NCBI GenBank assembly: GCA_964354255.1
Contig: CAYGYX010000007.1
Location: 1 to 52,929, forward strand
Length of the DNA: 52,929 nt
Reading direction: 5' to 3'
DNA from: an uncultured Acidimicrobiia bacterium
GTDB lineage: Bacteria; Actinomycetota; Acidimicrobiia; Spongiisociales; UBA11373
Position numbers and translations under genes: made by a program. Shown piece after piece: positions 34,790 through 52,929 of this stretch (its first letter is position 1; the number at the start of each line of letters is the position of its first letter). The notes under the pieces are model-generated. The model had not been told where the DNA came from and did not search any database. It saw nothing but the letters and a program-made list of their open reading frames with translations.

Positions 34790-35200
34790 ATGGCGCCGGA
34801 GCGCCTGCGGACGGCTCTGGAGCCGGGGGAGGCGGTGCTCGGCAGGTGGGTGGCGGGCCTCCCCACCCTGGGCGGCCGGGGGGTCAAGTACGGGGGCACG
34901 CTGATCCTGACCGGCCGCCGGCTCGTCTGGGAGCCCATCGACCTGCCCGGGGTGCTCACGCTGGCGCCGGGCCTCAGGGGGCTGGAGAGCCTCACCCGCG
35001 GGATGCCGCTCGGCCGGGTGGTCGCGGTGCAGGCCGACCCCGACCGCCGTGCCCTGCTCCACATCGACGGTTTCGACGGGTCGGTGAGCCTGCTCATCGG
35101 GGCTGCGCGGATGTCGCCGGTGTGGAGCCGGAAGAACCGGGCGGCGCGCGGCGAGGCCGTCGCCGTCATCCAGGCGGCGCTGGCGAAGCGGCCGGCCTAG
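34790..35200 (+). CDS. Hypothetical protein, possible PH/GRAM-like fold
   Basis: GGAGG SD, -10 TAGCCT at 34761; GTLILTGRRLVW pattern typical of bacterial PH-like domains. Confidence 0.55.
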   Translation: MAPERLRTALEPGEAVLGRWVAGLPTLGGRGVKYGGTLILTGRRLVWEPIDLPGVLTLAPGLRGLESLTRGMPLGRVVAVQADPDRRALLHIDGFDGSVSLLIGAARMSPVWSRKNRAARGEAVAVIQAALAKRPA

Positions 35201-35255
35201 CGCGGGCCCGGGCGCCCCTCGGGGGCGCAGCAGGCCCGGTCGGTACACTCGCCGT

Positions 35256-38149: not shown

Positions 38150-38167
38150 CGCCCCCCGCCGGGGGCG
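38150..38167. terminator. GC hairpin between convergent sigA and ytxH
   Basis: CGCCCCC-CGCC-GGGGGCG; no U-tract. Confidence 0.4.
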
Positions 38168-38194
38168 CGAGGGCTCAGACGTCCTGCCTCAGGT

Positions 38195-38389
38195 TCACTC
38201 GGCGTGCTGGGGGCTGAAGGGCAGATGCTCGGCGAGCCCCTTGCCCTTCTCGATGACGGCGGCCAGGGGCTCACTGCGGGTCGCGGAACCGAGCCAGTCT
38301 CTGATCTGCTCGTAACGCTGCCGGCCTGCCTTGGCCCCGAGCACGTAGCCCGCGGCGGCGCCGATGATGAATCCGGTCTTGAATCCCAC
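38195..38389 (-). CDS. Small YtxH-like protein
   Basis: GFIIGAAAGYVLGAKAGRQRYEQI, characteristic of actinobacterial YtxH-like proteins. Confidence 0.8.
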   Translation of the reverse strand: MGFKTGFIIGAAAGYVLGAKAGRQRYEQIRDWLGSATRSEPLAAVIEKGKGLAEHLPFSPQHAE

Positions 38390-38441
38390 GGCCCTATTGT
38401 CCCATGGCGCCGGTGGTAGCCTTCCGGGGCCTTCGGCCCTT

Positions 38442-38518
38442 TCCGGGGTAGCTCAATTCGGCAGAGCAGCGGACTGTTAATCCGTGTGTTGGGAGTTCGA
38501 GTCTCCCCCCCGGAGCCA
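38442..38518 (+). tRNA. tRNA-Asn(GTT)
   Basis: TCCGGGG/CCCCGGA acceptor stem, GCGGA-CTGTTAA-TCCGT anticodon arm, GTTCGA, encoded CCA. Confidence 0.97.
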
Positions 38519-38596
38519 CCCCTGACCTGGGGTCATGGTTGCCCTCGGTCTGCACCGTGGAGCCCACCCTGCACCCGGTTGCACAGGCGGTTGCAC

Positions 38597-38878
38597 GTGA
38601 GAGGCCCCCGCCCCGACCCCGCGCCCGTCGAGCAGCTCTCCTGCGCCGTCTGCGGACGGCAGCGTCCCGAGCATGCGGAGGGCGCTGAGCGCCCCTGGCC
38701 GCTCTCCGAAGAGGACGCCGCCCGGTTCACGGATGGGGAGCTCCTTGTTCTCGTCCGTCTGGAGACCGGGCGTTGCGCGGGTGGGTTAGACCCACCACTG
38801 CCGTCCCTTGCTGAGCGGCCCCGCATCCGGGAGGCGGCCAAGGTCACCCAGGGCCGGTGGCCTCCTGGCGGAAGGTGA
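38597..38878 (+). CDS. Possible small hypothetical protein or relic with CxxC
   Basis: SCAVCGRQRP in an open frame; no SD or family recognised. Confidence 0.2.
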   Translation: MRGPRPDPAPVEQLSCAVCGRQRPEHAEGAERPWPLSEEDAARFTDGELLVLVRLETGRCAGGLDPPLPSLAERPRIREAAKVTQGRWPPGGR

Positions 38879-39065
38879 GCCGCCACACCGTCGTGGCATG
38901 GGAGCTGGCCGTGGGCCACGGCTGGGGGGTCTTCGTCGCGATCCTGGCCTGCGTCGGGCACGCGGCGACGCGCCTCGGAGGGGAGGGGCGGCTGCTGCCC
39001 GGGCCGCTCTTGAGCGGTCGGGTCCAGCCGGGCAGGGCTTGGAGGCGGGCGGGCGACCCTCGCTC

Positions 39066-39275
39066 CTACTGGCTAGGCGGCTCAAACCGAGGGCCTGGCT
39101 TGACCCCCGGCTTCTTGGGGCGCACCCGGGTCTTGGCGGGCTTGGGCTGCTTGAGGTAGCACCAGTACTCGTCGACGGCCACCAACTCCCAGCCTTCGTC
39201 TCCCAGTGCATTCAGCTGCTCCAGGCCTCCGCTGGGTGGTGTCACCAGGTACTGCCACTTCTGTGGCTCGGCCAT
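39066..39275 (-). CDS. DUF4177-like small protein
   Basis: KWQYLV..LNALGDEGWELVAV..YLKQP; GGGAGG SD before ATG 39275; Lys/Pro-rich tail. Confidence 0.75.
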   Translation of the reverse strand: MAEPQKWQYLVTPPSGGLEQLNALGDEGWELVAVDEYWCYLKQPKPAKTRVRPKKPGVKPGPRFEPPSQ

Positions 39276-39479
39276 CCAAATCCTCCCTTCCTTGCAGTCC
39301 CCAATCATGGCCGAAGCTGTGGCCGGCAGCCGGTAACCGTCCATGCGGGCAGGTGAAGGCGGCTCCTATGAGCCCCGGCGGGCCGAGGTGGGCCGTTCGC
39401 CTCGCACCTGAGGAGCCGGCCCAGACGGAACACCGCGACTCGGCCCGGAGGGTGTTCTTCGCCCTGACCGACATGGGCA

Positions 39480-39600
39480 GGGGCTACCACCGCGGCCAAC
39501 TGCGACTCCTGCTATCCCGGCATCTGCATCCCGCCCCACCCCCCGACCTCGACTGCGGCGACATCCCCTACCGCCGGTTCACCGTCATCGGAGCCTCGGC
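39480..39600 (+). pseudogene. Relic of an excalibur-like Ca-binding Cys module
   Basis: NCDSCYPGICIPP then, after a 1-nt loss in a C run, PDLDCGDIPYRRFTVIG; no start, terminal DxDxDG-C part absent. Confidence 0.6.
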
Positions 39601-39840
39601 TGGGGGCACCGGTGGGGGCGCGGCGGCAATCGGATGACCACATCTCGGGCAGGCTGCCGCCTGGTCGGACACTCGGGCCCGACACTCGGGGCAGTTGATG
39701 AGTGCCAACAGTCACCTCCCTGACCCCGGGCCTGGGGTGCCAGCAGCCAAGCTGCTCCTGTCAGCTGCGTCTCGCCGTGGTGTGCCGCCCGGAACGCCGG
39801 ACCCCAGGGCCAAGAGCCGGCGCCCCCCGGGGCCGGGTAT

Positions 39841-40070
39841 TCGGCCGATCTTGCTCCAGGTGGCGCAGTCGGCGTCGGCGAAGGAACCGACATCGCTGGC
39901 GGCGATGGTCGCCGCGAGAGGGTTGTCGGTCAGGTCGTCAACGATTCAGTCGCCGGGCTCACCGGTGAACCCGGGCAGCCGCTCCCAGTAGCAGGGGGTC
40001 CCGTCGGAGGTCATCCGGCACCGGCCCGCCGGGATGTCGGTACCGACCACCCAGTTGCCGTTGCCGGAAG
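39841..40070 (-). pseudogene. Relic of an actinobacterial secreted/lipoprotein domain
   Basis: GNGNWVVGTDIPAG..CYWERLPGFTGEPGD*IVDD..TIAASDVGSF..CATWSKIG with in-frame TGA at 39946-39948. Confidence 0.65.
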
Positions 40071-40252
40071 CGCCCCGCTCTGGGGGAGGCGGAGACGGCG
40101 CCGGAGGGTCGGACTGTCAGTCCGTGTGCTGGGAGTCCGAGTGTCCCCCCGGAGTCACCACGGGGCGATCCTCGCCTGGACGACTCCACCGGCTCCTCCG
40201 ATCTGCCTCCAGGCCGGTGCCTTTTCGATCAGGGCATGCTGGGAACAACGGT

Positions 40253-40268
40253 GTGCCACCGGTGGCAC
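40253..40268. promoter_or_regulatory. Palindromic operator of the vapBC operon
   Basis: Perfect 16-bp palindrome GTGCCACCGGTGGCAC 10 nt upstream of the antitoxin ATG. Confidence 0.7.
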
Positions 40269-40278
40269 CAGATAGGGC

Positions 40279-40488
40279 ATGATCACCAAGACCACGATCT
40301 ACCTGCCCGATGATCTCAAGCGGGGGGTGGAGCGGGAGGCCCGGCGCCGCGGCGAATCGGAGGCCGAGGTGATCCGCCGGGCGATCGCCGCCGCCGTGGC
40401 CCGGCCCCGCCCGCGCAACGGGATCATCGATGCCGAGCCCTTCGCCGGCCGGGTCGAGGAAATGCTCGGGGGGTTCGGCGAGCGGTGA
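40279..40488 (+). CDS. vapB: RHH (CopG-type) VapB antitoxin, VapB26-like
   Basis: KTTIYLPDDLK..EAEVIRRAI..GFGER; GTGA overlap with PIN gene. Confidence 0.9.
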   Translation: MITKTTIYLPDDLKRGVEREARRRGESEAEVIRRAIAAAVARPRPRNGIIDAEPFAGRVEEMLGGFGER

Positions 40489-40895
40489 TCATCGCCGATA
40501 CCAGCGGGTTGCTCGCCCTGTTCAACCGGCGCGAGCCTGCCCACGTGGCGGTGCGGGCCCACGTCGAGGCAGCGGGCGAGGAGCTCGTGGTCTCGCCCTA
40601 CGTCCTCGCCGAACTCGACTGCCTCCTGGCCACCCGGGTTGGCGGCGATGGTGAGCTGGCCGTGCTTCGAGAGCTGATCGGCGGCGCCTATGTTCTGGCG
40701 AACCTCGAGGCCGAGGAGGTGGCGCGGGCCGTGGAGATAACCGAGCGCTACCGCGACCTGGGGATCGGTATCGCCGACGCCTCATTGGTGGTTCTCGCCG
40801 AGCGGTTCCGGACCAGGACGACCCTCACCCTCGACCGCCGCCGGTTCGAGGTGGTCAGACCCATCGGCGGCGGGCGGTTCAAGATCGTCCCGTGA
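40485..40895 (+). CDS. vapC: PIN-domain VapC toxin, VapC26-like
   Basis: IADTSG, SPYVLAELD, IGIADAS, TLTLDRR acidic tetrad; RPIGGGRF..P C-terminus. Confidence 0.92.
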   Translation: MIIADTSGLLALFNRREPAHVAVRAHVEAAGEELVVSPYVLAELDCLLATRVGGDGELAVLRELIGGAYVLANLEAEEVARAVEITERYRDLGIGIADASLVVLAERFRTRTTLTLDRRRFEVVRPIGGGRFKIVP

Positions 40896-40925
40896 CCGGG
40901 CCGACTCAGGGTGCCGGGGCCCCGA

Positions 40926-41906
40926 TCAGGCGAAGGCCGGCACGACCTCCCGGGCGAAGAGCTCCAACCCCGACAGGTCGTAGGCGGCGTCGGGGAAGTA
41001 GACGATGGCGTAGCCCAGCCCGGCCTCGGCCCACGGGCGCAGCCGCTCGGCCAGCTGCTCCGGGGTCCCCGCCATCTCCGCATACATGGCGGTGGCCCGT
41101 TGCGCCTGCTCCTCCGGGACGACCCGGCGGTAGCGGTCCCTGATCCAGGCGAGCGCGTCGTGGACCTCCCGCTCGGTCTCCCGGCAGACCACGAAGCGGT
41201 TGGTGGAACGCACGATGGCGTCGAAGTCCGTGCCCACCTCGCGACAGTGGCCGGCGAGGATCTCCGACCGGCGGGCGAACTCCTCGGGTGACGGCCCGAA
41301 GTTGGTGTGGGAGGCGTAACGGGCCGCCACCCGCAGGGTCAGCTGCTCGCCGCCTCCCGCCACCCAGATGGGGATGTGGGGCACCTGCACCGGCTTGGGC
41401 CGGCAGATGGCCCCCTGCAGGCGGTAGTGCTTTCCCTCGTAGTGGACCTCGTCCTCGGTCCACAGGCGCCGCATGATCTCGATGGCCTCGCGCAGCTGGC
41501 CGATGCGCGCCGCCGGGCGAGGGAACTCGTAGCCGTAGCCCTCGTACTCGTGCCGGTACCAGCCGGCCCCCATGCCCACATTGAGGCGGCCGCCGGAGAT
41601 GACGTCGACGGTGGCGGCCACCTTGGCCAGGTAGGCCGGCGGCCGGTAGGCGACGCAGGTGCACATCTGGCCCAGCCGCACCCTGTGGGTCGAGGCGGCG
41701 AGCGCCGCCATCAGCGTCCACGCCTCGTGGGTGGCTTCCTGGGAGGGGAGGGGAGTGGTGTGGAAGTGGTCGTAGACCCACAGGGACTCGTACCCCGACC
41801 GCTCGATGGCCGCCGCCACCGAACTGATCGTTTCCCAGTGCTGCTCGGTGGAGATCCCCACCAGGTCCATCCGCCAGCCCTGCGGTACGAAGGCCCCGAA
41901 TCGCAT
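40926..41906 (-). CDS. LLM class flavin/F420-dependent oxidoreductase
   Basis: FGAFVPQGWRMDL, WVYDHFHT, EAWTLMAALA, RLGQMCTC, GAGWY, PIWVAGGGE; ATG 41906 (GTG 41912 alternative). Confidence 0.9.
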   Translation of the reverse strand: MRFGAFVPQGWRMDLVGISTEQHWETISSVAAAIERSGYESLWVYDHFHTTPLPSQEATHEAWTLMAALAASTHRVRLGQMCTCVAYRPPAYLAKVAATVDVISGGRLNVGMGAGWYRHEYEGYGYEFPRPAARIGQLREAIEIMRRLWTEDEVHYEGKHYRLQGAICRPKPVQVPHIPIWVAGGGEQLTLRVAARYASHTNFGPSPEEFARRSEILAGHCREVGTDFDAIVRSTNRFVVCRETEREVHDALAWIRDRYRRVVPEEQAQRATAMYAEMAGTPEQLAERLRPWAEAGLGYAIVYFPDAAYDLSGLELFAREVVPAFA

Positions 41907-41983
41907 TGTCACCTCTGGGTGGTCGACGGCCGGTATGCCCTGGCCGGCAGGTTAGGTGGGGCGCAGGCGGGCCCGGCGATGGT

Positions 41984-42694
41984 TCAGCCCTGGATGAGGC
42001 CGATGGCCACCGGTTGCTGTTCGGACGAGACCACCCCGCCGGCCACTTCCACGGTGAGGGCGAAGCCGGCTACCTCTCCCGATACGTGGAAGGCAGCCAC
42101 TTCCGGGGCCGGCCCGAGCACCCCGGCGGAGATCACTCGCTCGCCGACGATGGCCCACAGCTGGTAGGTCCCGTCGCCGGGAAGAGCCGGCGCCTCGGGG
42201 GTGAGGACGTACCCGGTGCCGTCGGCGGCGAGCACTACCTCGGCCTGCACCTCTCCGGACAGGGGGATGATCTGCGACCCTTCCTGCCCCCGGGCCTCGG
42301 CCGCGGCCACAGCCAGCGGGTTCTCCTCGAAGTCGGTGATGCGGGTGTGCTGGTGGACGGCCACAACCGCCAGCACGACCCCCGCCGCGAGGCTGGTGGT
42401 CGCCACGGCGGCACTGAGCCAGCGACGCCACCAGGATGGGTGGAGCGCCGGCCGGGCGGGCGCCAGTGGCCCGGTGGCCGCGGCGATCCTGGTCCAAAGG
42501 GTGGCCGGTGCCCGATCGGCCGGGTCGACCGCTCCCTCGGCGAGGGCAGCCGCCACCGCCAAGTCGAGTCCGGCGGCCTGTGCCAGTGACGGGTCCGAAG
42601 CTAGGGCAGCCTCGACCCGGCGGCGCTCCTCGAGGCTCAGCGCGTCGAGCGCGTAGGCACCGAGCAGGCTCTCGACATCCTCGCGATCGATCAT
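41984..42694 (-). CDS. rskA: Anti-sigma factor RskA-like
   Basis: LLGAYALDAL N-terminal ASD, single TM, TYQLWAI..SAGVL..FALTVEVAGG RskA C-terminal domain. Confidence 0.85.
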   Translation of the reverse strand: MIDREDVESLLGAYALDALSLEERRRVEAALASDPSLAQAAGLDLAVAAALAEGAVDPADRAPATLWTRIAAATGPLAPARPALHPSWWRRWLSAAVATTSLAAGVVLAVVAVHQHTRITDFEENPLAVAAAEARGQEGSQIIPLSGEVQAEVVLAADGTGYVLTPEAPALPGDGTYQLWAIVGERVISAGVLGPAPEVAAFHVSGEVAGFALTVEVAGGVVSSEQQPVAIGLIQG

Positions 42695-43245
42695 GTCAGT
42701 CCTTCTTGCAGCAGCGGCCCTCGCAGGCGCTCCAGGCCCCGCCGTATGCGGCTCTTCACAGTGCCCTCGGGCTCACCCAGGTGGCGGGCCACCTCCTGGT
42801 AGGTCAGGCCGCCGTAGAAGGCGAGCATCACCGCGTCCCGTTCTGCGACGGGCAGTCCCCGGAGAGCGGAACGAACTCGCTCCGAGCGGATCGAGGACCA
42901 CACCTCTTGTTCGGGGCCGGGGACCTGGTCGGATGCCTGCGATTGCTCTCGTTCCTCGCGCGCCCGTCGGGCGGTCTCGGTCCGGAGGAGGTCAACCGCC
43001 CTGCCGTGCGCGTCACGCAGCAGGAAGGCCCGCAGCGGGGCGCGCTGTGGGTCGAAGCGGCCCGGATCGCGCCAGAAGCGGACGAACACCTCCTGGGTGA
43101 CCTCCTCGGCGAGTCCCGGGTTGCGCAGAACCCGGCGGGCCAGCCCCAGCACGGCCCCCGCGTGACGTTGATAGACGACCTCGAGCGCCCCGTGGTCCCC
43201 GGCGGCCGCCGCCGCGGCGAGGGCTTCATCGCTGAGTGAGGCCAC
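42691..43245 (-). CDS. sigK: ECF sigma factor, SigK-like
   Basis: AEEVTQEVF..W..FDPQR, AHGRAVD, LAFYGGLTYQEVA, GTVKSRIRRGL; coupled to rskA. Confidence 0.82.
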   Translation of the reverse strand: MASLSDEALAAAAAAGDHGALEVVYQRHAGAVLGLARRVLRNPGLAEEVTQEVFVRFWRDPGRFDPQRAPLRAFLLRDAHGRAVDLLRTETARRAREEREQSQASDQVPGPEQEVWSSIRSERVRSALRGLPVAERDAVMLAFYGGLTYQEVARHLGEPEGTVKSRIRRGLERLRGPLLQEGLT

Positions 43246-43286
43246 GGGCTCTGTGATAGCAGCGTGCCGTGTCTTAGGGAAACCGA

Positions 43287-43311
43287 CATCCGGCGGCAGC
43301 CTGGCTCCGAA
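43287..43311 (+). promoter_or_regulatory. Putative SigK-type promoter for the DUF4397-sortase operon
   Basis: CATCC-N15-CCGAA, resembling the SigK -35/-10 consensus as recalled. Confidence 0.55.
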
Positions 43312-43344
43312 TGACGGGTGTCCCTAACAACAAGGAGATCGGAA

Positions 43345-44154
43345 ATGCGCAAGTTGATGTTGATGTTGGCAGTGGGCGCCCTGGTGGCGTTCGCCGCCCT
43401 CCCCGCTTCGGCGCAGGAAGGCGCCCAGGTGTCCGTGATCCACGGCATCCCCGGGCTGACCGTCGACGTGTTCGTCAACGGTGAGCTCACGCTGGAGGGC
43501 TTCGAGCCCGGCGACGTCGCCGGCCCGCTCACCCTGCCGGCCGGCGACTACGAACTGGCCATTGCCCCCACCGGGGCCGGCATCGATGCGGCGGTCCTCA
43601 CCGGCACTGCCTCGGTGACCGACGGGCTGAACGCCTCGATCGCCGCCTACCTGAGCGAGATGGGCGAGCCCGGCATCGCCATCTTCGTGAATGACACCTC
43701 GGCCATCGCCGCCGGGCAGTCCCGCCTGGTGGTGCGCCACATCGCCGCTGCCCCGACGGTCGACATCCTGCTGGCGGACGGCACGCCGCTCTTCGAGGGC
43801 GTCACCAACTTCGCCAACGGCGAGCCGTTCGAGGGGCAGGCCGACGTCCCGGCCGGCGCCTACGACGTGCGCATTGCCCCGGCCGGCGCCGGGGTGGACG
43901 CCGCGGTGTTCTCGGCCGACGGCGTCGAGCTGCCCGAGGGCACGGCCCGCATCGTCTACGCCACCGGCAGCCTCGCCGAAGGCTCCTTCGGCCTGGTGAT
44001 CCAGGACATCGCCGGCCTGGGGGAGACCCCCGGCGGAGTTCCCACCGGCGACCTGACCTCCAGCGGCCTGCCGCTCTGGATGTTCCTGGCCGGCGGGTTC
44101 GCCCTGCTCATGCTGGCGGCGGTGCCCGTGGTGGCCGTCCGCCGGAGCCGGTGA
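43345..44154 (+). CDS. DUF4397 surface protein with VPTG sorting signal
   Basis: Signal peptide (ASA-Q), two repeats (VSVIHGIPGLTVDVFVNG; LVVRHIAAAPTVDILLADG), GGVPTG + TM + RRSR tail; AAGGAG SD. Confidence 0.85.
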   Translation: MRKLMLMLAVGALVAFAALPASAQEGAQVSVIHGIPGLTVDVFVNGELTLEGFEPGDVAGPLTLPAGDYELAIAPTGAGIDAAVLTGTASVTDGLNASIAAYLSEMGEPGIAIFVNDTSAIAAGQSRLVVRHIAAAPTVDILLADGTPLFEGVTNFANGEPFEGQADVPAGAYDVRIAPAGAGVDAAVFSADGVELPEGTARIVYATGSLAEGSFGLVIQDIAGLGETPGGVPTGDLTSSGLPLWMFLAGGFALLMLAAVPVVAVRRSR

Positions 44155-45014
44155 CCCGACTCCACCGACGTACGGGCTCGGGGAAGCCGCTTCGGCGGCT
44201 TCCCCGGCCGCGTCTCCTCTCCCTCACCCTGGGCACTGCCGGGGTGGTGGTGATCGTCGCCGGCCTCTTCCTCCAGGGCTCCACACCGGCGGTCGACCCC
44301 ACGCCGCCGCAGGGGTACGGATCCGTTGTCGGCCCGGCACCGGAACCCGCTTCGGCTTCCTCGACCGGGAACTCCTCCGCAGACAGCCCGGATGGCGGCC
44401 TCCTCCCCGACGCCTCGGCCACCACGGTGCCGCCACCCGAAGACGACCGGACACCCGCCCCCCTGGTGCCGGTAGCCCCGGGAAGCCTCGAGGATTTGCC
44501 GGGCGAGGACCGGGCCGAGCCGACGCGCCTGGTCATCCCCGCCCTGGATATCGACGCTCCCATCCAGGCCGTAGGTGTCACCGGCGGGGAGATGGAGGTG
44601 CCGCCGCGGGCCGACCTGGTGGCCTGGTACCGCTTCGGGCCGATCCCCGGGGCACCCGGCTCGGCGGTGCTCGCCGCCCACGTCTCGTGGGGCGGCGAGC
44701 GGGGGGCGTTCTACCACCTCCGCGACCTTCCCCGGGGGGCGGAGGTCGAAGTGCGGTTCGCCGATGGCTCAGTGCGCCGCTTTCGCTCGGTGGCGCTCGC
44801 CGCCTACGACAAGAGCGACCTCCCGGTGGAGCGGATCTTCGAGCGGCGGGGCGAACCGGTACTGACGTTGATCACCTGCGGAGGCGCCTTCAACCAATCG
44901 CTGCACAGTTTCGAGCAGAACGTGGTGGCCTCCGCGGTGCCGGCCGAGCAGGCAGACGCCGAGGAGGCGGACGCCGCAGAGCCGACGGTCGGCGACGCGC
45001 CGGGCCCCTCCTAG
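44151..45014 (+). CDS. Class F sortase
   Basis: PTRLVIPALDIDAPI, VAWY, GSAVLAAHV, LTLITCGG, NVVASA; N-terminal TM; GTGA overlap with substrate gene. Confidence 0.9.
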   Translation: MTRLHRRTGSGKPLRRLPRPRLLSLTLGTAGVVVIVAGLFLQGSTPAVDPTPPQGYGSVVGPAPEPASASSTGNSSADSPDGGLLPDASATTVPPPEDDRTPAPLVPVAPGSLEDLPGEDRAEPTRLVIPALDIDAPIQAVGVTGGEMEVPPRADLVAWYRFGPIPGAPGSAVLAAHVSWGGERGAFYHLRDLPRGAEVEVRFADGSVRRFRSVALAAYDKSDLPVERIFERRGEPVLTLITCGGAFNQSLHSFEQNVVASAVPAEQADAEEADAAEPTVGDAPGPS

Positions 45015-45056
45015 CCGGCCGGCCGATTTGCCGGCGGTCCAGTGGCGTTGTCCCGC

Positions 45057-46322
45057 CTATGCCGGCCGCTGCGCCCAGAAGCGCTCGGCGGCCGCCTTCA
45101 TTGCCTCGACGAGAGGCAGGGGCTTGCCGCTCAGGTAGCGGATGAGGGCACCGCCGCCGGTGCTGACCACGTCGATGCGGCTGGTGTCGACGAACCGCTT
45201 GGCGCTGGAGACGGTGTCGCCGCCGCCGATGACGGTGTGGGCGGAGGTGTCGGCCACTGCCTGCCAGAGCGCCCGGGTGCCGGCCTGGGTGTTGGGGTTC
45301 TCATAGGCCCCGGGCGGCCCGTTCACGAAGACGGTGGCGGCCTGCCCGATCATCTCCGAGTAGGCGGCGATGGTCTGGGCCCCGATGTCGAGGAGCAGGT
45401 GCTCGGTGGGCAGGTCCTGCACCGCCACCTCGATTCGCTTCCCGTCCACCTCCATTGCCAGGTCGGTGGGCAGGTGGATGATGCCCGGGTAGGCGGCGAG
45501 GTGTGTCCTGGCCTCCTCGACGAAGCCGGCGAGGTTGCGGTCGCGGATGAAGCGCTCCGAAGCCTCGCCCAGCGAGACCCCGCGGGCGAGGAGGAACACG
45601 TGGCCGGTGACCCCGGCGGTGAGCACCACGTCGGCGGTGCCGTCGGCCAGCACCTTGCCCAGCATGCCGAAGGCGTCGGAGATCTTCAGGCCGCCCAGCA
45701 AGTAGAGGCAGGGCCGCCGCGGGGCATCGGCCACCGCGGTGAGGGCATCGATCTCCGCCGTCAACAGCCTTCCGGCCGCCGTCGGCAGCACCTCCTGGAA
45801 GGCGACCATCGACGGGGAGGCGCGATGGGCGGCGGCGAAAGCGTCGTTCACGTAGTAGTCGAACAGGGGGGCCAGGTTGCGTACCAGGTAGGTGCCCGCC
45901 ATCTGCTGCGGGGTGAGCTTGACGTCCCGCTCGAAGGTGGACACCTCCTCGGTCAGGTAGCGCAGGTTGTCGAGCAGCAGGATCTCCCCGCTCCCCAGGT
46001 CGGCGATCGCTCGACGCGCCGCCGGCCCGGCCACGTCGTCGATGAAGCCGACCGGCCGCCCCAGCCGCTCGGCCAGGGCGGTGGCGTGCTGGGACAGGCC
46101 GGTGAGGTTGTGGTAGTCGAGGGTGTCGCCCTGGTGGGCGATGAGCACCAGCCGGGCGCCCCGGTCGGCCAGGTCGCGGATGGTGGGCAGGCTCTTGTCG
46201 ATCCGGTTGAAGTCGGCCAGCAGGCCGGTCTGGCGGTCGATGGGGGAGTTGATGTCGACTCGCAGCAGCACCGCCTGGCCGGCGACCTCCAGGTCGTCGA
46301 TCGAGGGGATGCGGTCGGCCAT
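45057..46322 (-). CDS. pgk: Phosphoglycerate kinase family protein, archaeal-type
   Basis: LRVDINSP, LLDNLRY, NDAFAAAHR, GGLKISD, NGPPGAYE, GGGDT, STGGGA; ATG overlaps gap stop (TGATG). Confidence 0.88.
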   Translation of the reverse strand: MADRIPSIDDLEVAGQAVLLRVDINSPIDRQTGLLADFNRIDKSLPTIRDLADRGARLVLIAHQGDTLDYHNLTGLSQHATALAERLGRPVGFIDDVAGPAARRAIADLGSGEILLLDNLRYLTEEVSTFERDVKLTPQQMAGTYLVRNLAPLFDYYVNDAFAAAHRASPSMVAFQEVLPTAAGRLLTAEIDALTAVADAPRRPCLYLLGGLKISDAFGMLGKVLADGTADVVLTAGVTGHVFLLARGVSLGEASERFIRDRNLAGFVEEARTHLAAYPGIIHLPTDLAMEVDGKRIEVAVQDLPTEHLLLDIGAQTIAAYSEMIGQAATVFVNGPPGAYENPNTQAGTRALWQAVADTSAHTVIGGGDTVSSAKRFVDTSRIDVVSTGGGALIRYLSGKPLPLVEAMKAAAERFWAQRPA

Positions 46323-47341
46323 CAGGCCATTCCCAGGTACCGGTTGGTCAGCGCCACCGCCTCCGCCCCATCGGTCTGCATGGGGATGGACGCCCGGATG
46401 GCGTCGATCGTCTCGGGGATGACCACCGACTCCTGGGGGATGTTGATGGCGAACATGAGGTCGTCGCCGGAGAAGCCGATGGCCTCCTCCCATACCCCGG
46501 TCTCGTACATGTCGCCGCGGGGGTGGCCCAGGAAGCGGGCGTAGTTGAACAGCGAGGTGTTGGTGGTGAACCCGTCGGCCATGCGGACCACTCGCAGTCG
46601 CGGATGGGCCCGGAAGACCTCGAGCGCCTCCTCCTTGGTGGGCTTGCGCTTGAGGCTGGCTACCAGGGTGATGATGTGCCCGTGGGTGACCGGGGTGTGG
46701 ACCAGGATCCCGGTGGCGTCCACGTGCGGCATGATGTGCATCAGGTCCTTGGCCTGGTGGTTGGGGATCGGCTCGATCAGCAGGCAGTCGACCAGCCCGC
46801 GGTGCGTGTCGCCCGGGTCGGCGACCCGGCGGATGATGGTGATCGCCACCTTGGTCACCCCGAAGGACCGGTCTAGGGCGTCGACCGCCCGGACCAGGCC
46901 GGTGGTGTTGCAGGAGGTCAGCTTCAGGTAGTCCTTGCCCACGCCCTGGGCGTAGTTGGCGTACCCGTGGAAGAAGACGTCGGCGATCTCCCCCTTCTCC
47001 CCGCCTTGGAAGACGGCCTTGAGCCCGGCGGCGACGTAGAGCTCCTTGTTCTTCGCCCCGACCCCTCCCGGCGCGGAGTCGAGCATGATGTCGACGCTGC
47101 CGATCAGGTCGGCGAAGGAGCCCGACACCGGGATCCCGGCCTTCTCGAGGCGGTCGGCGGCGTCGGGGGCGGCGGCGAACATCCGGTAGGGCATGCCCCG
47201 CTCCTTCAGGGCTTGCACCGCCAGGGTGGGTGCCACGTCGGCGACGCCGACCAGCTCCATGTCCTCCTGGCGGGCCACGCCGTCCGCCAGGCGCTGCCCG
47301 ATCACTCCGAACCCGGCTACCCCGACCCGAACCTTCGTCAT
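46322..47341 (-). CDS. gap: Type II (archaeal-type) phosphorylating glyceraldehyde-3-phosphate dehydrogenase
   Basis: GVAGFGVIGQRLAD, FQGGEK, SCNTTGL (not the bacterial SCTTNCL), IRRVADP, QESVVIPETIDAIRA. Confidence 0.9.
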   Translation of the reverse strand: MTKVRVGVAGFGVIGQRLADGVARQEDMELVGVADVAPTLAVQALKERGMPYRMFAAAPDAADRLEKAGIPVSGSFADLIGSVDIMLDSAPGGVGAKNKELYVAAGLKAVFQGGEKGEIADVFFHGYANYAQGVGKDYLKLTSCNTTGLVRAVDALDRSFGVTKVAITIIRRVADPGDTHRGLVDCLLIEPIPNHQAKDLMHIMPHVDATGILVHTPVTHGHIITLVASLKRKPTKEEALEVFRAHPRLRVVRMADGFTTNTSLFNYARFLGHPRGDMYETGVWEEAIGFSGDDLMFAINIPQESVVIPETIDAIRASIPMQTDGAEAVALTNRYLGMA

Positions 47342-47418
47342 CGTTCCTCCTCGTGCCTGCAGGCTGCTGCTCGTTGTCCGGCCCTTCCCAGACCGGTCGG
47401 GAGATCCCTATCGGGGGG

Positions 47419-48429
47419 TCACGGACTGTACTGGGCCACCGGCTGGGGCTGCCCGGTCTCGGCCGACCGGACGACCGCCTCGAGGATGGCCACGTTGCCC
47501 AACCTATGCTGGTTGGTGAAGCGGTAGGCGACGCGGCCGGCGACTGCGTCGGCCCAGTGCTCGTAGCCGGCTTTGACCGGGCTGGCTGGTTCGAAGTCGT
47601 GGCGGGTCTGCTGAGTGTCGCCGCGCCGGCGGACGTAGAACTGGGTGGTGCCGCCCGGGTCAACGTGCTGGGTCTCACGGGCCTCCGCCCAGGCGTGGCT
47701 CCCGAACACGGCGAATCGGGCGTAGTCGGGGGTGGCCGACAGGGCAGCGATGTGCCCGGTGGTGCCGTCGCCGAAACGCAGGTGCACCGAGACCACGTCG
47801 CCGGTGGGGATGACCAGGATGCGTTTGGCGGTGTGAGCCTGCACCTCGAGCACCGGCTCCACCAGGCTGAGCATCATGTCGCTGAGGTGGACCCCCATGC
47901 CGGTCCAGCCGGCGGCGGGGGCTTCTTCCTTGCTGCCCCGCCAGTTGTCGGCCGCCATGTTGAGCCAGCGGTCGTGGCTCCAGTGGGCTTCCATGTGAAG
48001 GATGGTGCCCAGCTCGCCCGAGTCGGCCATCCGCTTGATCTCCTCCCAGGCGGGCTCGAAGCGCCGCTCGTGGCCGATGCCCAGCACAATGCCCGCCCGG
48101 TCGCAGGCCTCGATCATCTTCCGGGCGCTGTCCACCATCAGGGCCAGGGGCTTCTCGCAGAAGATCTGTTTGCCGGCGGCGGCGGCCTGCAGCACCGCGA
48201 CCTCATGGAGGCGGTGGGGGATGGTGAGGATGACCGCCTCGATCGCCGGGTCGTCCAGCACCTGTTGGAAGTCGGCCAGCACCGGCAGACCGTGGGCATC
48301 CCGGTACCGCTGGGCGACCTCGGGCGACGGGTCGACCCCGCAGACGATCTCGATCTTCTCGCTGCCCTTGAGGGCCTTGGTGACCTGGCTTCCCCACCAG
48401 CCGAGCCCGACCTGGGCCGTCTTCAGCAT
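47419..48429 (-). CDS. Gfo/Idh/MocA family oxidoreductase
   Basis: VGLGWWG, IFCEKPLA, GHERRFEP, GVHLSD. Confidence 0.9.
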   Translation of the reverse strand: MLKTAQVGLGWWGSQVTKALKGSEKIEIVCGVDPSPEVAQRYRDAHGLPVLADFQQVLDDPAIEAVILTIPHRLHEVAVLQAAAAGKQIFCEKPLALMVDSARKMIEACDRAGIVLGIGHERRFEPAWEEIKRMADSGELGTILHMEAHWSHDRWLNMAADNWRGSKEEAPAAGWTGMGVHLSDMMLSLVEPVLEVQAHTAKRILVIPTGDVVSVHLRFGDGTTGHIAALSATPDYARFAVFGSHAWAEARETQHVDPGGTTQFYVRRRGDTQQTRHDFEPASPVKAGYEHWADAVAGRVAYRFTNQHRLGNVAILEAVVRSAETGQPQPVAQYSP

Positions 48430-48586
48430 GCTGCCCTCTCCTTCACTGCGGTCCGCCCCGCCGGCTGGGCCGGGCCCTCGGGGCCGCAGGATACCCGCCT
48501 TCGCGGTACCCCTTCGGGGGTGACGGTGGCTGCGGTCGCGTTGCGGGCGGCGGATGGCCGGGAAGGGTGGGCGCCGCCGGCCGGGC

Positions 48587-49564
48587 TCAGGCCACCCGGG
48601 CGTCGTTTTGGAGTGTGGCCTCGTCCCGCAGGCGGGCGAGCGCCTCGTTCACGATCTGGCGCACTCGCTCCGGGGTGATGCCCAACTCCGCGGCTATGTC
48701 CGACAGGGTCCGGCTACGGCCGTCGGCCAGGCCGAAGCGGGCGGCGACGATCTGCGCTTGCTTCTGGGGCAGCAGCCCCAACGCCGCGTGGAGGGCCTCC
48801 CTGGTCTCACCGCGAGCTGCCTCGTCCTCCGGGTCGGCGGCGTCGGCGTCGAGGACGAAATCGCCCAGCAGGGCGCCGTCCTCCCCAACCGGGCGGTCGA
48901 GGGAGACCGTGTCGGCGACCTCCAGTGCCTCGGCGACCCGGCCGGGCGCAATCCCCGTCTCGGCGGAGACCTGGGCAAGGGTGGGTTCGCGGCCCAAGGT
49001 CCCACGCAAGGTGGTAGTTGCGGCGCGCACGGCCGGCAGGATCTCATGGAGGTGTACCGGGATGCGCACGTTGCGGGATTGAGCCGCGATGGCCCGGGAG
49101 ATTGCCTGGCGGATCCACCAGGTGGCATAGGTGGAGAACTTGAAACCCCTGCGCCAATCGAACTTCTCTACGGCCCGTATGAGACCGAGGTTGCCCTCTT
49201 GGATGAGATCGAGGAGGTCGAGGCCGTCGGACCCTGCATAGCGGCGTGCATTGGCGACTACCAGGCGCAGGTTGGCGGAGATGAACCTGTCTTTGGCCGC
49301 CCTGCCCTGCTCCACCTGGCGACGGAGTCCGGCTTGCTCGGCTCGGTCGCGGATCTGCTGTGATTCCAGCCGTCGGGCCGCCCGTTCCCCCGCCTCTATG
49401 GTCTGCGCCAGTTCGCTCTCATCGTCGGCGCTGAGCAGATCGTGGCCACCGACCTCGTTCAGGTAGCGGGTGAGGGTGTCGGTGGTCGGCTGCGAGCGCC
49501 GGGGGGCGCGAGGAAGCCTCTCCGGAGGGTCTGTGCGGGCGGTGGCGTCTCTGGACGCGGGCAC
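48587..49564 (-). CDS. Second sigma70-family (group 2/RpoD-like) sigma factor
   Basis: [58 protein letters not shown]; start uncertain (ORF open to 49753). Confidence 0.88.
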   Translation of the reverse strand: MPASRDATARTDPPERLPRAPRRSQPTTDTLTRYLNEVGGHDLLSADDESELAQTIEAGERAARRLESQQIRDRAEQAGLRRQVEQGRAAKDRFISANLRLVVANARRYAGSDGLDLLDLIQEGNLGLIRAVEKFDWRRGFKFSTYATWWIRQAISRAIAAQSRNVRIPVHLHEILPAVRAATTTLRGTLGREPTLAQVSAETGIAPGRVAEALEVADTVSLDRPVGEDGALLGDFVLDADAADPEDEAARGETREALHAALGLLPQKQAQIVAARFGLADGRSRTLSDIAAELGITPERVRQIVNEALARLRDEATLQNDARVA

Positions 49565-49667
49565 ACTGCCAGAACACCCGTTCGTCGGCTTCTGTTCCCG
49601 GAGCGCCGGTGAGTGTCTCCCTGCGCCTGGCGTGGTCACCCATGGTGGCCACGGGCTCTTGGCGCCA

Positions 49668-49689
49668 CCGAGTGGGATACCGAGTGGGA
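49668..49689. repeat. Tandem direct repeat CCGAGTGGGA x2 in divergent intergenic region
   Basis: 10-bp units at 49668-49677 and 49680-49689. Confidence 0.7.
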
Positions 49690-49862
49690 ATCGCCTGCTC
49701 CGATCATGTGCCATTTGCCCGGCCCACATAGGCGGGGAGCGGCCCCATTGCATGTGAAAGGAGGGCCGCGATGGGGAAATGTCGGACTTGGTGGTAATCG
49801 GCCTAGCCGCTTGACCGCCGATGGTATAGCATCAAACCGTCCCCGCTATTGGAGGGTTACCC

Positions 49863-50255
49863 ATGGCAATGTCGGCTCAGCACAAGGCGGCTCTCGCCCA
49901 GGGTCGTCGAGAAGGGCGAGCTGTCAAGCAGTACCTGGAGGCACTGGGCAGCCGCCGCCCCGGACGTCCGGTCACACCCGAGCGCTTGCGCGACAAGATC
50001 ACCGCTCTCGAGTCTCGCATCGGCGAGGAGGCGGACCCGCTCAAGGCGTTGGAGATGCGCCAGGAGCGCCTCGATGCAGAGGCCGCGCTCGCTCGCGCCG
50101 AGGCCACCGAGGACTTCGCCGCCCTGGAAGCTGCCTTCATCGAGCATGCCCAGTCCTACTCGGAACGCAAGGGCATCTCGTATTCGGCCTGGCGGGAGTC
50201 GGGTGTAGCCGCCGGCGTGCTGCGGAGCGCCGGCATACCCCGATCCCGCGGCTAG
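49863..50255 (+). CDS. Hypothetical small basic/coiled-coil protein, candidate nucleoid-associated protein
   Basis: GGAGG SD and TATAGCAT upstream; HKAALAQGR, RRPGRP, coiled coil, YSERKGISYSAWRESGV..VLRSAGI. Confidence 0.8.
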   Translation: MAMSAQHKAALAQGRREGRAVKQYLEALGSRRPGRPVTPERLRDKITALESRIGEEADPLKALEMRQERLDAEAALARAEATEDFAALEAAFIEHAQSYSERKGISYSAWRESGVAAGVLRSAGIPRSRG

Positions 50256-50311
50256 CCCTCGTCGGCGCCGCACATCCGTGGCCGGCTCGGTCGGCCGCAC
50301 ACCCTCAACCG

Positions 50312-50385
50312 GGGCCCGTAGCTCAGTCGGTCAGAGCAGCGGACTCATAATCCGTCAGACGCAGGTTCGAATCCTGCCGGGCCCA
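50312..50385 (+). tRNA. tRNA with CAT anticodon, most likely tRNA-Ile2 (lysidine-modified)
   Basis: GGGCCCG/CGGGCCC acceptor stem with C4,C5, GCGGA-CTCATAA-TCCGT anticodon arm, A73; CCA not encoded. Confidence 0.9.
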
Positions 50386-50495
50386 CGACTTCTGCGGGTG
50401 ATCGGCGGTCGCCGCCTGTTCAGCAGCGACGGTGCCGGTGCCGGGGTTGTTGCTGCCGTCTGGGGGCTGCGCCGAGGGGTGGGGCATCGACGGTG

Positions 50496-51047
50496 TCAGC
50501 AGCCGGGAAGGTCCGGCCGGCACCGCTCGAGCAGGATGTAGGCCCCGTCGGCCAGATCGTATCCCGGCAACGGGGTGGCCTCCCCGACCAGCGCCGAGGC
50601 GTCATCGGCATCCACGCCCAGGCGGACGACGGCTTCGCCGCCCCGCACCTGGATCTGGAAGACCACCATGCCGTCCGCCGAGACCGGGCCCGACAGCTCT
50701 TGACCGGATGGGTCGGGAAAGGTGCCCTCGGCTCGCGCCGTCCACAGCTCGCCCTGCGGCTGGTGGATCTCCAGGATGAAGGCGTCGCTCGAGGTGCCCT
50801 CACCCGGCTTGTCGAGGCTTTCCCCGCTTCACAACCCCACGAAGTCGGCGGCGACGGCGCTTGGACGCACGGGCCTGAGCAGGTCGGGAAGTCCCTCGGC
50901 GACCCAGAGCGACGATGCAGCGGCCGGGTGGGTGGGGGATTCCGGCGCTCCCGCGTCGCCGTCGCCGAAGTACACGACGAAGAGCGCCGCGACCCCCGCC
51001 ACGACTGCCACGAGCAGTGCCCACAGCCGCCAGGTCAACCGCGTCAC
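50496..51047 (-). pseudogene. Membrane-anchored hypothetical protein with internal stop
   Basis: GGAGG SD + GTG, TM LWALLVAVVAGVAALFVVYF; frame continues past TGA at 50829-50831 (FVGL*SGES) to ERCRPDLPGC*. Confidence 0.6.
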
Positions 51048-51415
51048 GCCCGCCTCCGGGTCTGCCCCTCGATGCCAGAGCAGCCATCGTGCTGCTGCCA
51101 CAGGAGTCCAGCCAGGGCCCGCGGGCGCAGTTGACGCCGCCCGTCGCGACTCTCTAGGCTCAATCGATAATCGATACACCCCCGGTGCTGGGACCGGGTG
51201 CCGGACCGCAGAGGATGGAACGTGGTTCGAGTCGCTGAGGGGATATGGTGCTGGCGGAAGCCCCCAGGCACGCTGGGCAAGCCGGTTTCCTTCTCATCCC
51301 CGTCGCCTCGGCTTGAGAGCCCGGGGGCTAGCATTCCGGGGGTGGACCGGGTCGCTCGCTCGCCCCGCCGGAGGCCCTCGGCAGTCTGCAGTCCGGCTCT
51401 TCTCGGGAAGCAGCG

Positions 51416-52441
51416 ATGACGGTCGACGCGCGCCCAAGCGGCGAGTCGTCGGCTCAGCCCGAGGCAGGCCGAGGCCCGACGGGTTGGCTTGGTCTGATGA
51501 ACAAGCCCGTCGTCAAGTGGCCGGCCGCCCTCGCGGTGCTCGCTGTCTTGGTGGCCTTCTGGACTATCGCCCGGCAGTCCCTGGTGATCGGGGTGGTGTC
51601 CGACGCCCCGCTGGTGTTGGCGGCCATCGGCTTCGCCCTCCTGTACCGCCTGACCGGGTTGATCAACGTGGCCTACTCCGAGACCGTCACCATGGGCGCC
51701 TACATCGGCATGTGGGTCAACACCACCTTCGGGCTCAACTTCTATGTGACCCTCATCCCGACGGCGATCCTCACCGGGCTGTTCAGCGTGCTCACCTACT
51801 TCGCCATCTTCCGGCCGGCGAAGCTGCGCAACGTGGGGGTCGTGGAGACGATCATCATCTCCTTCGGGCTCTCGATCTTCCTCCGGTACGGCCTCCAGTT
51901 CGTCTTCGGGTTCGAGTTCCGCTACTACGACGTACCGGTCCAGAAGAGCCTCTCCGTGCTCGGGGTGGGGGTGAGCCCCTTCCGGCTCACCGCGCTGGGA
52001 GTGACTCTGGCCCTCTCCCTGCTGCTGATCTGGTTCATCCGGAAGTCCCGGGTGGGAGTCAGGATCCGGGCCCTGGCCGGCGATGAGAAGCTGGCGCAGG
52101 TGAGCGGTATTAACCCGCTGGCCACGACCGTGCTCATCTGGTTCGTCGCCGGGGTGGCCGGCGGTCTGGCCGGGGCGTTCTACGGGGTGAATACCTCCTG
52201 CCGGGCGTGGCTCGGGTGGGATCAGTTCCTCTTCATTCTCCTGGTTGTCCTCATCGGTGGGGCGAGAGGGATCAGCGGGGTCCTGTTCGCCGGGCTGGCT
52301 ACCGGCGTCGCTCTCTCCTTCCTGGAGCTGGTGCCGGGGCTCAAGACCACACCGGTCTATGCGCAGGTGATCGTGATCGCCCTGTTCATGGTGATCCTGA
52401 AGGTGCGGGGGAACCGGCTGATCGAGACGGGGAAGGTGTAG
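51416..52441 (+). CDS. Branched-chain amino acid-type ABC permease (LivH-like)
   Basis: AIGFALLYRLTGLINVAY, VGVRIRALAGDEKLAQVSGINP, LVVLIGGA. Confidence 0.88.
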   Translation: MTVDARPSGESSAQPEAGRGPTGWLGLMNKPVVKWPAALAVLAVLVAFWTIARQSLVIGVVSDAPLVLAAIGFALLYRLTGLINVAYSETVTMGAYIGMWVNTTFGLNFYVTLIPTAILTGLFSVLTYFAIFRPAKLRNVGVVETIIISFGLSIFLRYGLQFVFGFEFRYYDVPVQKSLSVLGVGVSPFRLTALGVTLALSLLLIWFIRKSRVGVRIRALAGDEKLAQVSGINPLATTVLIWFVAGVAGGLAGAFYGVNTSCRAWLGWDQFLFILLVVLIGGARGISGVLFAGLATGVALSFLELVPGLKTTPVYAQVIVIALFMVILKVRGNRLIETGKV

Positions 52442-52446
52442 GTGCC

Positions 52447-52929
52447 ATGAGTCTCGACTGGCTTTCGCATTACACCGTCACGGTCCTGATCCTCATCTTC
52501 ACCACTATGGGGCTGGCGCTGCTGCTCCACCTGCAGTTGGGGCTGACGGGGATCGGCAACTTCGGCCTCGTCGGCTTCTACGGGGTGGGGATGTACGCGT
52601 TTGGGATGTTCCTGGTCCACGTCCCCTGGCCGGAGAGCTGGGGGATGCTCATCCCCTTCTTCCTCTCGCTCCTTCTGGCGACGGTGGCGGCCGGCCTGGC
52701 CGGGCTGCTGGTGGGCTGGCTGATCGTCGGCCTCGACGCCGACGGCATCCTCCTCGGCACGCTCGGGTTCGCCGCCATCGTCTACGGCCTGTCGCAAACC
52801 AATCGCGACTGGACCGGCGGGGCCGAAGGCATGGGTACCGCCGACTTCCCCTACGACGTCGGCTCGCAGAAGGCGAACACCCTGCTGTGGCTGGGCATCC
52901 TGTTGGTGGTGGTGGCCCTCATCCTGTTC
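52447..52929 (+). CDS. Branched-chain amino acid-type ABC permease (LivM-like), 3'-truncated by window edge
   Basis: LHLQLGLTGIGNFGLVGFYGVGMY, LLGTLGFAAI, WTGGAEG. Confidence 0.85.
   Translation, partial: MSLDWLSHYTVTVLILIFTTMGLALLLHLQLGLTGIGNFGLVGFYGVGMYAFGMFLVHVPWPESWGMLIPFFLSLLLATVAAGLAGLLVGWLIVGLDADGILLGTLGFAAIVYGLSQTNRDWTGGAEGMGTADFPYDVGSQKANTLLWLGILLVVVALILF

Follow-up and report, generated by a model that had tools for sequence, protein, structure and literature searches.

A stretch of 52,929 nucleotides from an uncultured Acidimicrobiia bacterium (assembly GCA_964354255.1, contig CAYGYX010000007.1; hereafter the window) encodes a protein resembling phosphoglycerate kinase (PGK) whose substrate loop reads HQGD, next to a partner resembling the type II glyceraldehyde-3-phosphate dehydrogenase (GAPDH) of archaea. 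We consider it probable that the PGK-like gene is a neofunctionalised archaeal-type PGK paralogue, and that the two enzymes would convert D-malate semialdehyde via D-malyl phosphate to D-malate and ATP; we infer the substrate, from gene context, as well as the direction and the role of the Asp of the motif, Asp66, whereas the motif itself, its conservation, the single clade, the gene linkages and the canonical pgk and gap of the genome are directly observed. With a little less assurance, we also favour a broader proposal: that many bacterial phyla hold an unrecognised carboxylate version of lower glycolysis, run by mis-named GAPDH and PGK paralogues, in which a single Arg-to-Asp exchange in the HxGR motif would act as a switch, turning a phosphate pocket into a carboxylate pocket and keeping the pair apart from glycolysis, and which would serve inositol, 4-amino-3-hydroxybutyrate and, in Acidimicrobiia, a sugar-acid route. 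The pair comprises:

45057..46322, minus strand: the PGK-like gene of the HQGD family, 421 aa, recognised by the Pfam PGK profile and a predicted model.
46322..47341, minus strand: the type-II-GAPDH-like gene, 339 aa, recognised by the NF003251 profile; proposed phosphorylating D-malate-semialdehyde dehydrogenase.

Translated from position 46322, the 421-aa PGK-like protein (MADRIPS...LIAHQGDTLDYHNL; N-terminus MADRIPSIDDLEV) matches PF00162 over its full length (345 bits, profile positions 1-379, in a Pfam profile search). Its best solved relative is the PGK of P. horikoshii (2cun, 261 bits; EC 2.7.2.3), with which it shares fold, length, 35% identity and the nucleotide and phosphoryl-transfer motifs, and the same entry is the best PDB structure match (TM 0.87) of the AlphaFold2 model built from the family alignment (pLDDT 94.2, pTM 0.89). 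The first-pass annotation of the window had placed HQGD at 46125-46136, and the translation bears this out exactly, as residues 63-66. In pairwise alignments D66 faces the Arg of HLGR in the T. maritima and B. stearothermophilus PGKs and the Lys of HQGK in that of P. horikoshii. The differences from archaeal PGK comprise the exchange of the Arg/Lys of HQG(R/K)P for Asp, a rebuilt loop that is one residue longer, and an extra segment at residues 128-135:

46125..46136, minus strand: the H63-Q64-G65-D66 motif, from translation and alignments; D66 stands in place of the 3-phosphate-binding Arg (yeast and human Arg65).
46104..46136, minus strand: the remodelled substrate loop HQGDTLDYHNL, residues 63-73, from the comparison of 85 with 102 sequences and motif counts.
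45918..45941, minus strand: the family-specific segment S128-T-F-E-R-D-V-K135, which follows NLR and lies opposite a gap in the aligned archaeal PGKs.

All of the 85 family members compared (100%) have Asp at position 66; among 102 archaeal-type PGKs, 98% have Arg there and none (0%) has Asp. Set against the archaeal HQ(G/S)RPGxxDF, the loop has family-specific T67, L68, an inserted Y70, N72 and L73; in the second segment F130, E131 and V134 are invariant and K135 is conserved in 94% of the 85, with lower model confidence across residues 128-135 (pLDDT 75-80). The window protein carries both of these family marks, the loop and the STFERDVK segment.

Around this altered site the ligands known from PGKs persist. 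That they are retained had been claimed before, and D23, N25, R40, R121 and H166-R167 indeed prove invariant in a 71-sequence family alignment:

46242..46256, minus strand: DINSP with D23 and N25, invariant in alignment A1.
46203..46205, minus strand: R40 (NRID), invariant; equivalent to Arg38, ligand of the carboxylate and of the transferred phosphate.
45957..45968, minus strand: NLRY with R121, the invariant equivalent of Arg122; Y122 is family-specific (Phe in archaeal PGKs).
45816..45830, minus strand: AHRAS with H166-R167, invariant; equivalent to His169/Arg170.

The residues that hold the carboxylate and 2-hydroxyl of 3-phosphoglycerate (3-PG) in human PGK, Asp23, Asn25 and Arg38, are all matched (D23, N25, R40), and from established PGK structures we take D23 and N25 to be the ligands of the substrate 2-hydroxyl. 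The basic patch for the 3-phosphate (His62, Arg65, Arg122, Arg170) is incomplete: of these four distal anion ligands three remain, as H63, R121 and R167, with Asp in the place of Arg65. The phosphoryl-transfer and nucleotide motifs K213, NGPPG (334-338), GGGD (366-369) and STGGGA (387-392) are invariant or nearly so.

The exchange extends far beyond this one protein. HQGD is found in 120 of the 120 closest homologues (62-93% identity) in a collection of 5.8 billion proteins; these come mainly from Acidimicrobiia and Actinomycetota metagenome-assembled genomes (MAGs), and their loop nearly always reads HQGDTLDYHNL. At 89 related loci that we fetched, 86 of the PGK-like open reading frames (ORFs) read HQGD, down to 51% identity and in several phyla, and, with one genome scanned per species, family members of 51-63% identity turned up in Clostridia (Fonticella, several Clostridium species), Negativicutes (Pelosinus, Lucifera), Dehalococcoidales, Spirochaetes, Gammaproteobacteria, Victivallales and Anaerolineae. 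In a tree of 134 best representatives from a 1.84-billion-protein library, one clade (SH-aLRT 96) takes 23 of the 26 sequences without Arg or Lys at the site, and that clade is nested among archaeal-type PGKs. Considering this conservation, and that nearly all sequences without the basic residue form one clade, its loss appears to be essentially one old, family-defining event; judged from these alignments, Asp66 is far beyond chance and not accidental.

Sister clades without the basic residue read HQGS(D/M).., HQGGD.. or HQGDPS.. (P0123, P0124, P0126, P0133, P0136, P0248; L010:8001-9269; L092:1160-2407). P0133 adjoins a GAPDH-II-like gene, P0123 lies among two AOR-family genes, cupins and a PF04199 cyclase, and a look-up of the HQGS/HQGG proteins gave short contigs only. 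These clades may act on other phosphate-free analogues of glyceraldehyde 3-phosphate (GAP).

The partner has changes of its own. Its stop codon overlaps the PGK-like start by one base (TGATG), and the genes are translationally coupled. Whether HQGD tracks with linkage to a type II GAPDH gene had been raised in the first-pass annotation, and it does: a GAPDH-like gene adjoins the PGK-like gene in 80 of the 89 loci, and in 51 of the 53 with full flanks (at least 6 kb on both sides). The GAPDH-like protein scores 391 bits on NF003251 (cut-off 185) and 299 on TIGR01546 (cut-off 233), with archaeal GAPDHs as its best PDB matches (2czc, 258 bits, and 1cf2). Like these type II enzymes of P. horikoshii (2CZC) and Methanothermus fervidus (1CF2), it keeps the catalytic Cys (Cys144, in SCNTT), the Arg-Arg pair (R171-R172) and the HxH motif. 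It differs from them in having Asp for the NADP-specifying Lys (D35), Gln for the Pi-site His194 (Q196) and Pro for the conserved His of VHQES (P302), where the roles of the Pi-site His193/His194 and of the Lys are those described for archaeal GAPDH (PMC12041015). All three changes, present in the window protein, are fixed at 96-100% of 75 family members compared with four solved archaeal GAPDHs, the first two at 100% each. An Asp at the cofactor site suggests use of NAD+ and an oxidative, catabolic role. Since each protein has its own fixed family changes, the PGK-like and GAPDH-like proteins seem to have diverged in concert.

What the pair works with can be read from its neighbours. We clustered all ORFs of the 89 loci and named the recurrent clusters with NCBIfam and Pfam. 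Within 10 kb, 35 of the 53 full-flank loci encode a malate racemase (NF052593, 596 bits, cut-off 500; the Ni-dependent LarAH6) or a TTC-type tartrate/D-malate dehydrogenase (TIGR02089, 441-496 bits, cut-off 470), and three operon types recur. The type of Clostridia, Negativicutes and others (e.g. Fonticella, L018) begins with LacI, an ABC transporter, IolG, malic enzyme, the GAPDH-like and PGK-like genes and a split transketolase, and continues with an IolB-like gene, IolD (1009 bits), IolE (448 bits), IolG (498 bits) and the malate racemase LarAH6. It thus resembles the myo-inositol catabolism of Bacillus subtilis (IolG, E, D, B, C, J, A) in IolG, IolE, IolD and an IolB-like isomerase, but in place of IolC, IolJ and IolA, which are not in the operon, it has the split transketolase, the pair of GAPDH-like and PGK-like genes, a malate racemase and a malic enzyme; in none of seven genomes with such an operon does IolC or IolA rise above the family cut-off. 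In the second type (L030:5672-13000; also L020, L021, L034, L055), a sigma-54 regulator and a GABA-type class III aminotransferase precede the pair, and an Asp/Glu-racemase-family protein, malic enzyme and malate racemase come after it, an arrangement suggesting that 4-amino-3-hydroxybutyrate, or an amino-hydroxy acid like it, is broken down via D-malate. The third, in Acidimicrobiia, has an Iso_dh gene of the tartrate/D-malate-dehydrogenase type (TIGR02089, 441-451 bits) directly upstream of the pair; after the pair, L004 and L013 carry cupins, a split transketolase, an SDR, an MBL-fold protein and an MFS transporter.

From these arrangements we propose the following chemistry. The GAPDH-II-like enzyme would combine D-malate semialdehyde (3-hydroxy-4-oxobutanoate), which is GAP with -CH2-COO(-) replacing -CH2-OPO3, with Pi and probably NAD+ to give D-malyl phosphate, and the PGK-like enzyme, acting as a D-malyl-phosphate:ADP phosphotransferase (in reverse, a D-malate 1-kinase), would pass the acyl phosphate to ADP, yielding D-malate and ATP. 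As the pair would yield the D-isomer, its operons need either a racemase with malic enzyme or a D-malate-specific decarboxylating dehydrogenase: D-malate would go to pyruvate via the Ni-dependent malate racemase and malic enzyme in Clostridia and others, and via a beta-decarboxylating D-malate/tartrate dehydrogenase in Acidimicrobiia (on contig C67 in the genome of the window). Two unrelated upstream routes, IolG/E/D/B with the split transketolase and the GABA-type aminotransferase, would converge on one aldehyde. In the former, transketolase would take the C6-C5 ketol unit off 5-dehydro-2-deoxy-D-gluconate, the IolB product, and leave OHC-CH(OH)-CH2-COO(-); on stereochemical reasoning, this donor read from its ketol end is D-threo, as transketolase donors need to be, and the remainder would be D at the hydroxyl carbon. 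In the latter, omega-transamination of 4-amino-3-hydroxybutyrate would give the same D-malate semialdehyde. Within the PGK-like active site, D23, N25 and R40 would hold the (2R)-2-hydroxy-acid head as in PGK, and H63, R121 and R167 the distal carboxylate. Asp66 and the rebuilt 63-73 loop would make for a smaller pocket with less positive charge, fitting a monoanionic carboxylate that is one atom shorter, and they would repel the dianionic phosphate of 3-PG and 1,3-bisphosphoglycerate, keeping the enzyme out of glycolysis.

Would the pair run in the oxidative direction? The chemistry of PGK and GAPDH is reversible, as are aminotransferase and transketolase, and a malate racemase with malic enzyme could supply D-malate, so that an ATP-consuming, reductive passage from D-malate via D-malyl phosphate to D-malate semialdehyde, for biosynthesis or for a transketolase or aminotransferase product, is conceivable. 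We hold it to be very improbable: at the head of the operons stand uptake genes for sugars and inositol, a LacI repressor and the catabolic IolG/E/D/B, the GAPDH-like cofactor site speaks for NAD+ with its Asp, and no plausible end product is encoded.

As to the substrate, the first-pass annotation had already suggested a different acyl phosphate, with a distal group that is non-phosphorylated, smaller or amino-bearing. A different substrate is supported by the canonical pgk and gap found elsewhere in the genome, the monophyletic Asp family, the GAPDH-II-like linkage and the D-malate operon partners. A smaller, non-phosphorylated group agrees with the operon partners and with D-malate, which is 3-PG bearing -CH2-COO(-) instead of -CH2-OPO3(2-) and remains anionic; for an amino-bearing one there is no support, the retained H63, R121 and R167 pointing to an anionic group. 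An aspartate-like substrate, with Asp binding its ammonium, likewise finds no support in gene context, where the aminotransferase-type operon predicts a hydroxy-aldehyde instead. Glycerate and glyceraldehyde, for an ATP-yielding step of a non-phosphorylative Entner-Doudoroff pathway, were considered on account of AOR and ALDH neighbours and set aside, both because H63, R121 and R167 argue for an anionic distal group and on the recurrence of malate-enzyme partners. A sulfonate, namely 3-sulfolactaldehyde and 3-sulfolactate from sulfoquinovose breakdown, would be a monoanionic phosphate mimic as well, and the HQGS/HQGG sister clades exist; we give it the faintest of chances, as sulfoquinovose, sulfite-lyase and sulfonate-export genes are not among the annotated neighbours scanned at HQGD loci, and the partners that are present are malate enzymes.

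The genome from which the window comes has a canonical bacterial PGK on contig C51 (458 bits, SHLGRP) and a type I GAPDH on contig C54 (449 bits), and the pair is therefore not needed for glycolysis. Unlike archaeal PGK, the PGK-like gene is a second copy beside the canonical pgk and is linked to malate enzymes and not to glycolysis. It is accessory, occurring in 6 of 6 genomes of the genus, patchily in the family and, elsewhere in the order, in 1 of 24 genomes. Could the pair still be an ordinary, transferred archaeal-type PGK and GAPDH working on 3-PG and GAP, for example as gluconeogenic or condition-specific isoenzymes, with Asp66 as a tolerated lineage change? Its strong PGK and type II GAPDH profile scores, the retention of all other 3-PG ligands and the AOR-family genes that adjoin some loci, as GAPOR does in archaea, would fit. 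We nevertheless find this quite improbable. Canonical pgk and gap are present, linkage to tpi, eno or fba occurs in 0 of the 27 locus gene maps read, and the genes systematically linked to the pair encode D-malate enzymes rather than those of glycolysis; the charge-reversing Asp and rebuilt loop are strictly conserved across phyla, and the Asp in the cofactor site of the GAPDH-like partner hints at NAD+ and at catabolism, as opposed to the NADP-preferring gluconeogenic GAPDH of archaea.

Several points do weigh against the D-malate proposal, and some of them favour an ordinary PGK. Yeast PGK Arg65 mutants (R65Q, PDB 1qpg, an entry among the structure matches of the PGK-like protein) reportedly stay active, so that loss of Arg65 alone need not abolish 3-PG turnover. 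K135, the only conserved base specific to the HQGD family in the comparison of 85 with 102 sequences, may compensate for the lost Arg. The GAPDH-like partner retains both archaeal Ps-site Arg, which an ordinary GAPDH would also keep, and passes the NCBI equivalog cut-off for type II GAPDH. Within the window, the only operon partner besides the pair is a Gfo/Idh/MocA dehydrogenase without assigned specificity, and the transketolase cluster and D-malate dehydrogenase lie on other contigs (C30, C67), where the C67 Iso_dh may serve as LeuB too, or be nothing other than LeuB. Finally, IolD, IolE and IolB, on which the inositol route to the aldehyde would draw, are not detectable in this genome.

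The Gfo/Idh/MocA gene heads the unit to which the pair belongs:

47419..48429, minus strand: Gfo/Idh/MocA oxidoreductase, 336 aa, first gene of the three-gene unit; a sugar-type dehydrogenase.

Its product falls below every NCBIfam cut-off (IolG 106 bits, cut-off 355; not an IolG orthologue), with generic sugar oxidoreductases as its best PDB matches. The same trio recurs at loci L003 and L012, and a convergent sortase gene closes the unit in the window. No glycolytic genes neighbour the PGK-like gene in the window, and neither malate racemase nor TTC-type dehydrogenase was found in the flanks searched (window 35001-52929). Both of the missing parts of the Acidimicrobiia-type operon have counterparts on other contigs: C30 carries a cluster of split transketolase, SDR, MBL, MFS and cupin genes with 71% identity to the one joined to the pair in L013, and C67 a TTC-type Iso_dh that is 73% identical to the operon-linked orthologue. 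As pair, transketolase cluster and Iso_dh lie apart, the module in this genome would be split over three contigs. Three Iso_dh (PF00180) paralogues occur in the genomes with the fused operon, as against two found here (the genome is 94% complete), and because those genomes have three, the operon-linked Iso_dh would be a dedicated copy.

These clusters also feed the foremost alternative, which retains the chemistry and direction and changes the substrate, at least in Acidimicrobiia: L-tartrate semialdehyde would be converted via L-tartryl phosphate to L-(+)-tartrate. Gluconate would be oxidised by the SDR to 5-keto-D-gluconate, which transketolase would cleave to tartrate semialdehyde, and the pair would turn this into tartrate and ATP, with tartrate dehydrogenase as the last enzyme. 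Beside the split transketolase of L004/L013 and C30 stand an SDR whose best NCBIfam match is gluconate 5-dehydrogenase (232 bits, cut-off 279), an MBL-fold hydrolase and an MFS transporter; the linked Iso_dh scores highest on the 'tartrate dehydrogenase' profile TIGR02089; and the failure to detect IolD/E/B in this genome agrees with such a route. (2R,3R)-tartrate retains the (2R)-hydroxy-acid head and the distal carboxylate, and malate racemases epimerise tartrate too (PMC11770544). On the other hand, the Clostridia-type operons share the HQGDTLDYxNL loop, and their IolB/IolD/IolE, malate racemase and malic enzyme indicate malate specifically; the SDR stays under its family cut-off, and TTC-type enzymes are active on D-malate too. 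Taken together, we regard tartrate as unlikely, and D-malate as the better candidate.

Parts of the D-malate proposal have precedents. In the carnitine catabolism of Acinetobacter baumannii, the passage from D-malic semialdehyde to D-malate and, by a beta-decarboxylating D-malate dehydrogenase, to pyruvate is experimentally proven (PMC11353897). This L-carnitine pathway resembles our proposal in D-malic semialdehyde, D-malate and the Iso_dh-family D-malate dehydrogenase (PMC11353897), but its malic semialdehyde dehydrogenase is of the ALDH family, irreversible and without ATP gain, where the GAPDH-like/PGK-like couple would save an ATP. The interconversion of malate, malyl phosphate and malate semialdehyde likewise appears in a pathway to 2,4-dihydroxybutyrate built on an engineered malate kinase and malate semialdehyde dehydrogenase, which is called synthetic (PMC12104201, PMC6689062). 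Here, by comparison, the enzymes are natural, of PGK and GAPDH ancestry, and would work on the D-isomer, at the carboxyl that adjoins its hydroxyl group. The synthetic enzymes are said to use aspartate kinase and Asd scaffolds, and to act on L-malate and on its other carboxyl group. A new pathway had been suggested in the first-pass annotation, and in the searchable full texts, outside of which most subscription journals lie, neither a route by transketolase, GAPDH-like and PGK-like enzymes nor natural D-malyl phosphate nor an inositol catabolism that branches off by transketolase was found described. A 2026 paper on inositol fermentation by Dysosmobacter proposes an aldolase route, and a malate racemase characterisation names no source of D-malate (PMC11770544).

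If the proposal is true, the implications reach from enzyme specificity to genome annotation. PGK is, to our knowledge, treated as a one-reaction family, and this would be its first known natural specificity for a substrate other than 3-PG, together with a new substrate-level phosphorylation step. Microbial energy metabolism would gain a new ATP-forming reaction, carried by a widespread PGK paralogue; the source of the D-malate that many malate racemases use would be explained; and anaerobic inositol fermentation would have an ATP-yielding ending, of relevance to gut and sediment microbes. A systematic mis-annotation would also be corrected, as these genes score above the curated thresholds of 'phosphoglycerate kinase' and 'type II GAPDH', and such mis-annotation inflates the glycolytic and gluconeogenic capacity inferred in MAG-based metabolic models. 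The Arg/Asp switch, as a simple specificity determinant, could perhaps find use in engineering malyl-phosphate chemistry, which has so far come from synthetic enzymes.

The annotation hazard extends to the neighbours: pipelines will call the GAPDH-like paralogue glycolytic and the operon-linked Iso_dh a leucine enzyme. Indeed, this Iso_dh (L004:7860-8954) barely passes the LeuB model NF002898 (395-404 bits, cut-off 393); it scores higher on tartrate dehydrogenase (441-451), yet below the cut-off of 470. Neither of the two Iso_dh genes of the window's own genome (C67:1988-3028 and C6:28500-29663) reaches the scores of LeuB-type copies in related genomes (~425 bits); leuB may fall in the part of the genome that is missing or be absent altogether, or the TTC-type enzyme may double as LeuB.

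Among Gammaproteobacteria (Candidatus Rariloculaceae and others; L044, L047, L050, L062, L078), two conserved proteins of 311 and 157 aa, without a match in Pfam or NCBIfam, are encoded ~2-3 kb upstream of the pair, and no malate racemase or TTC-type gene lies near these five loci. The C30 region of the window's genome (C30:14175-23718) comprises a divergent FGGY sugar kinase, a Dabb protein, a C_GCAxxG_C_C protein, a cupin, the split transketolase, the gluconate-5-dehydrogenase-like SDR, the MBL-fold hydrolase and the MFS transporter; in a related genome (L004/L013), the stretch between cupin and MFS transporter, both included, is fused to the pair. On C54, two type I GAPDH-family genes stand in tandem (C54:1764-2735 and C54:2789-3751), one above the cut-off (449 bits) and one below (316), which suggests that the second is a further GAPDH paralogue.

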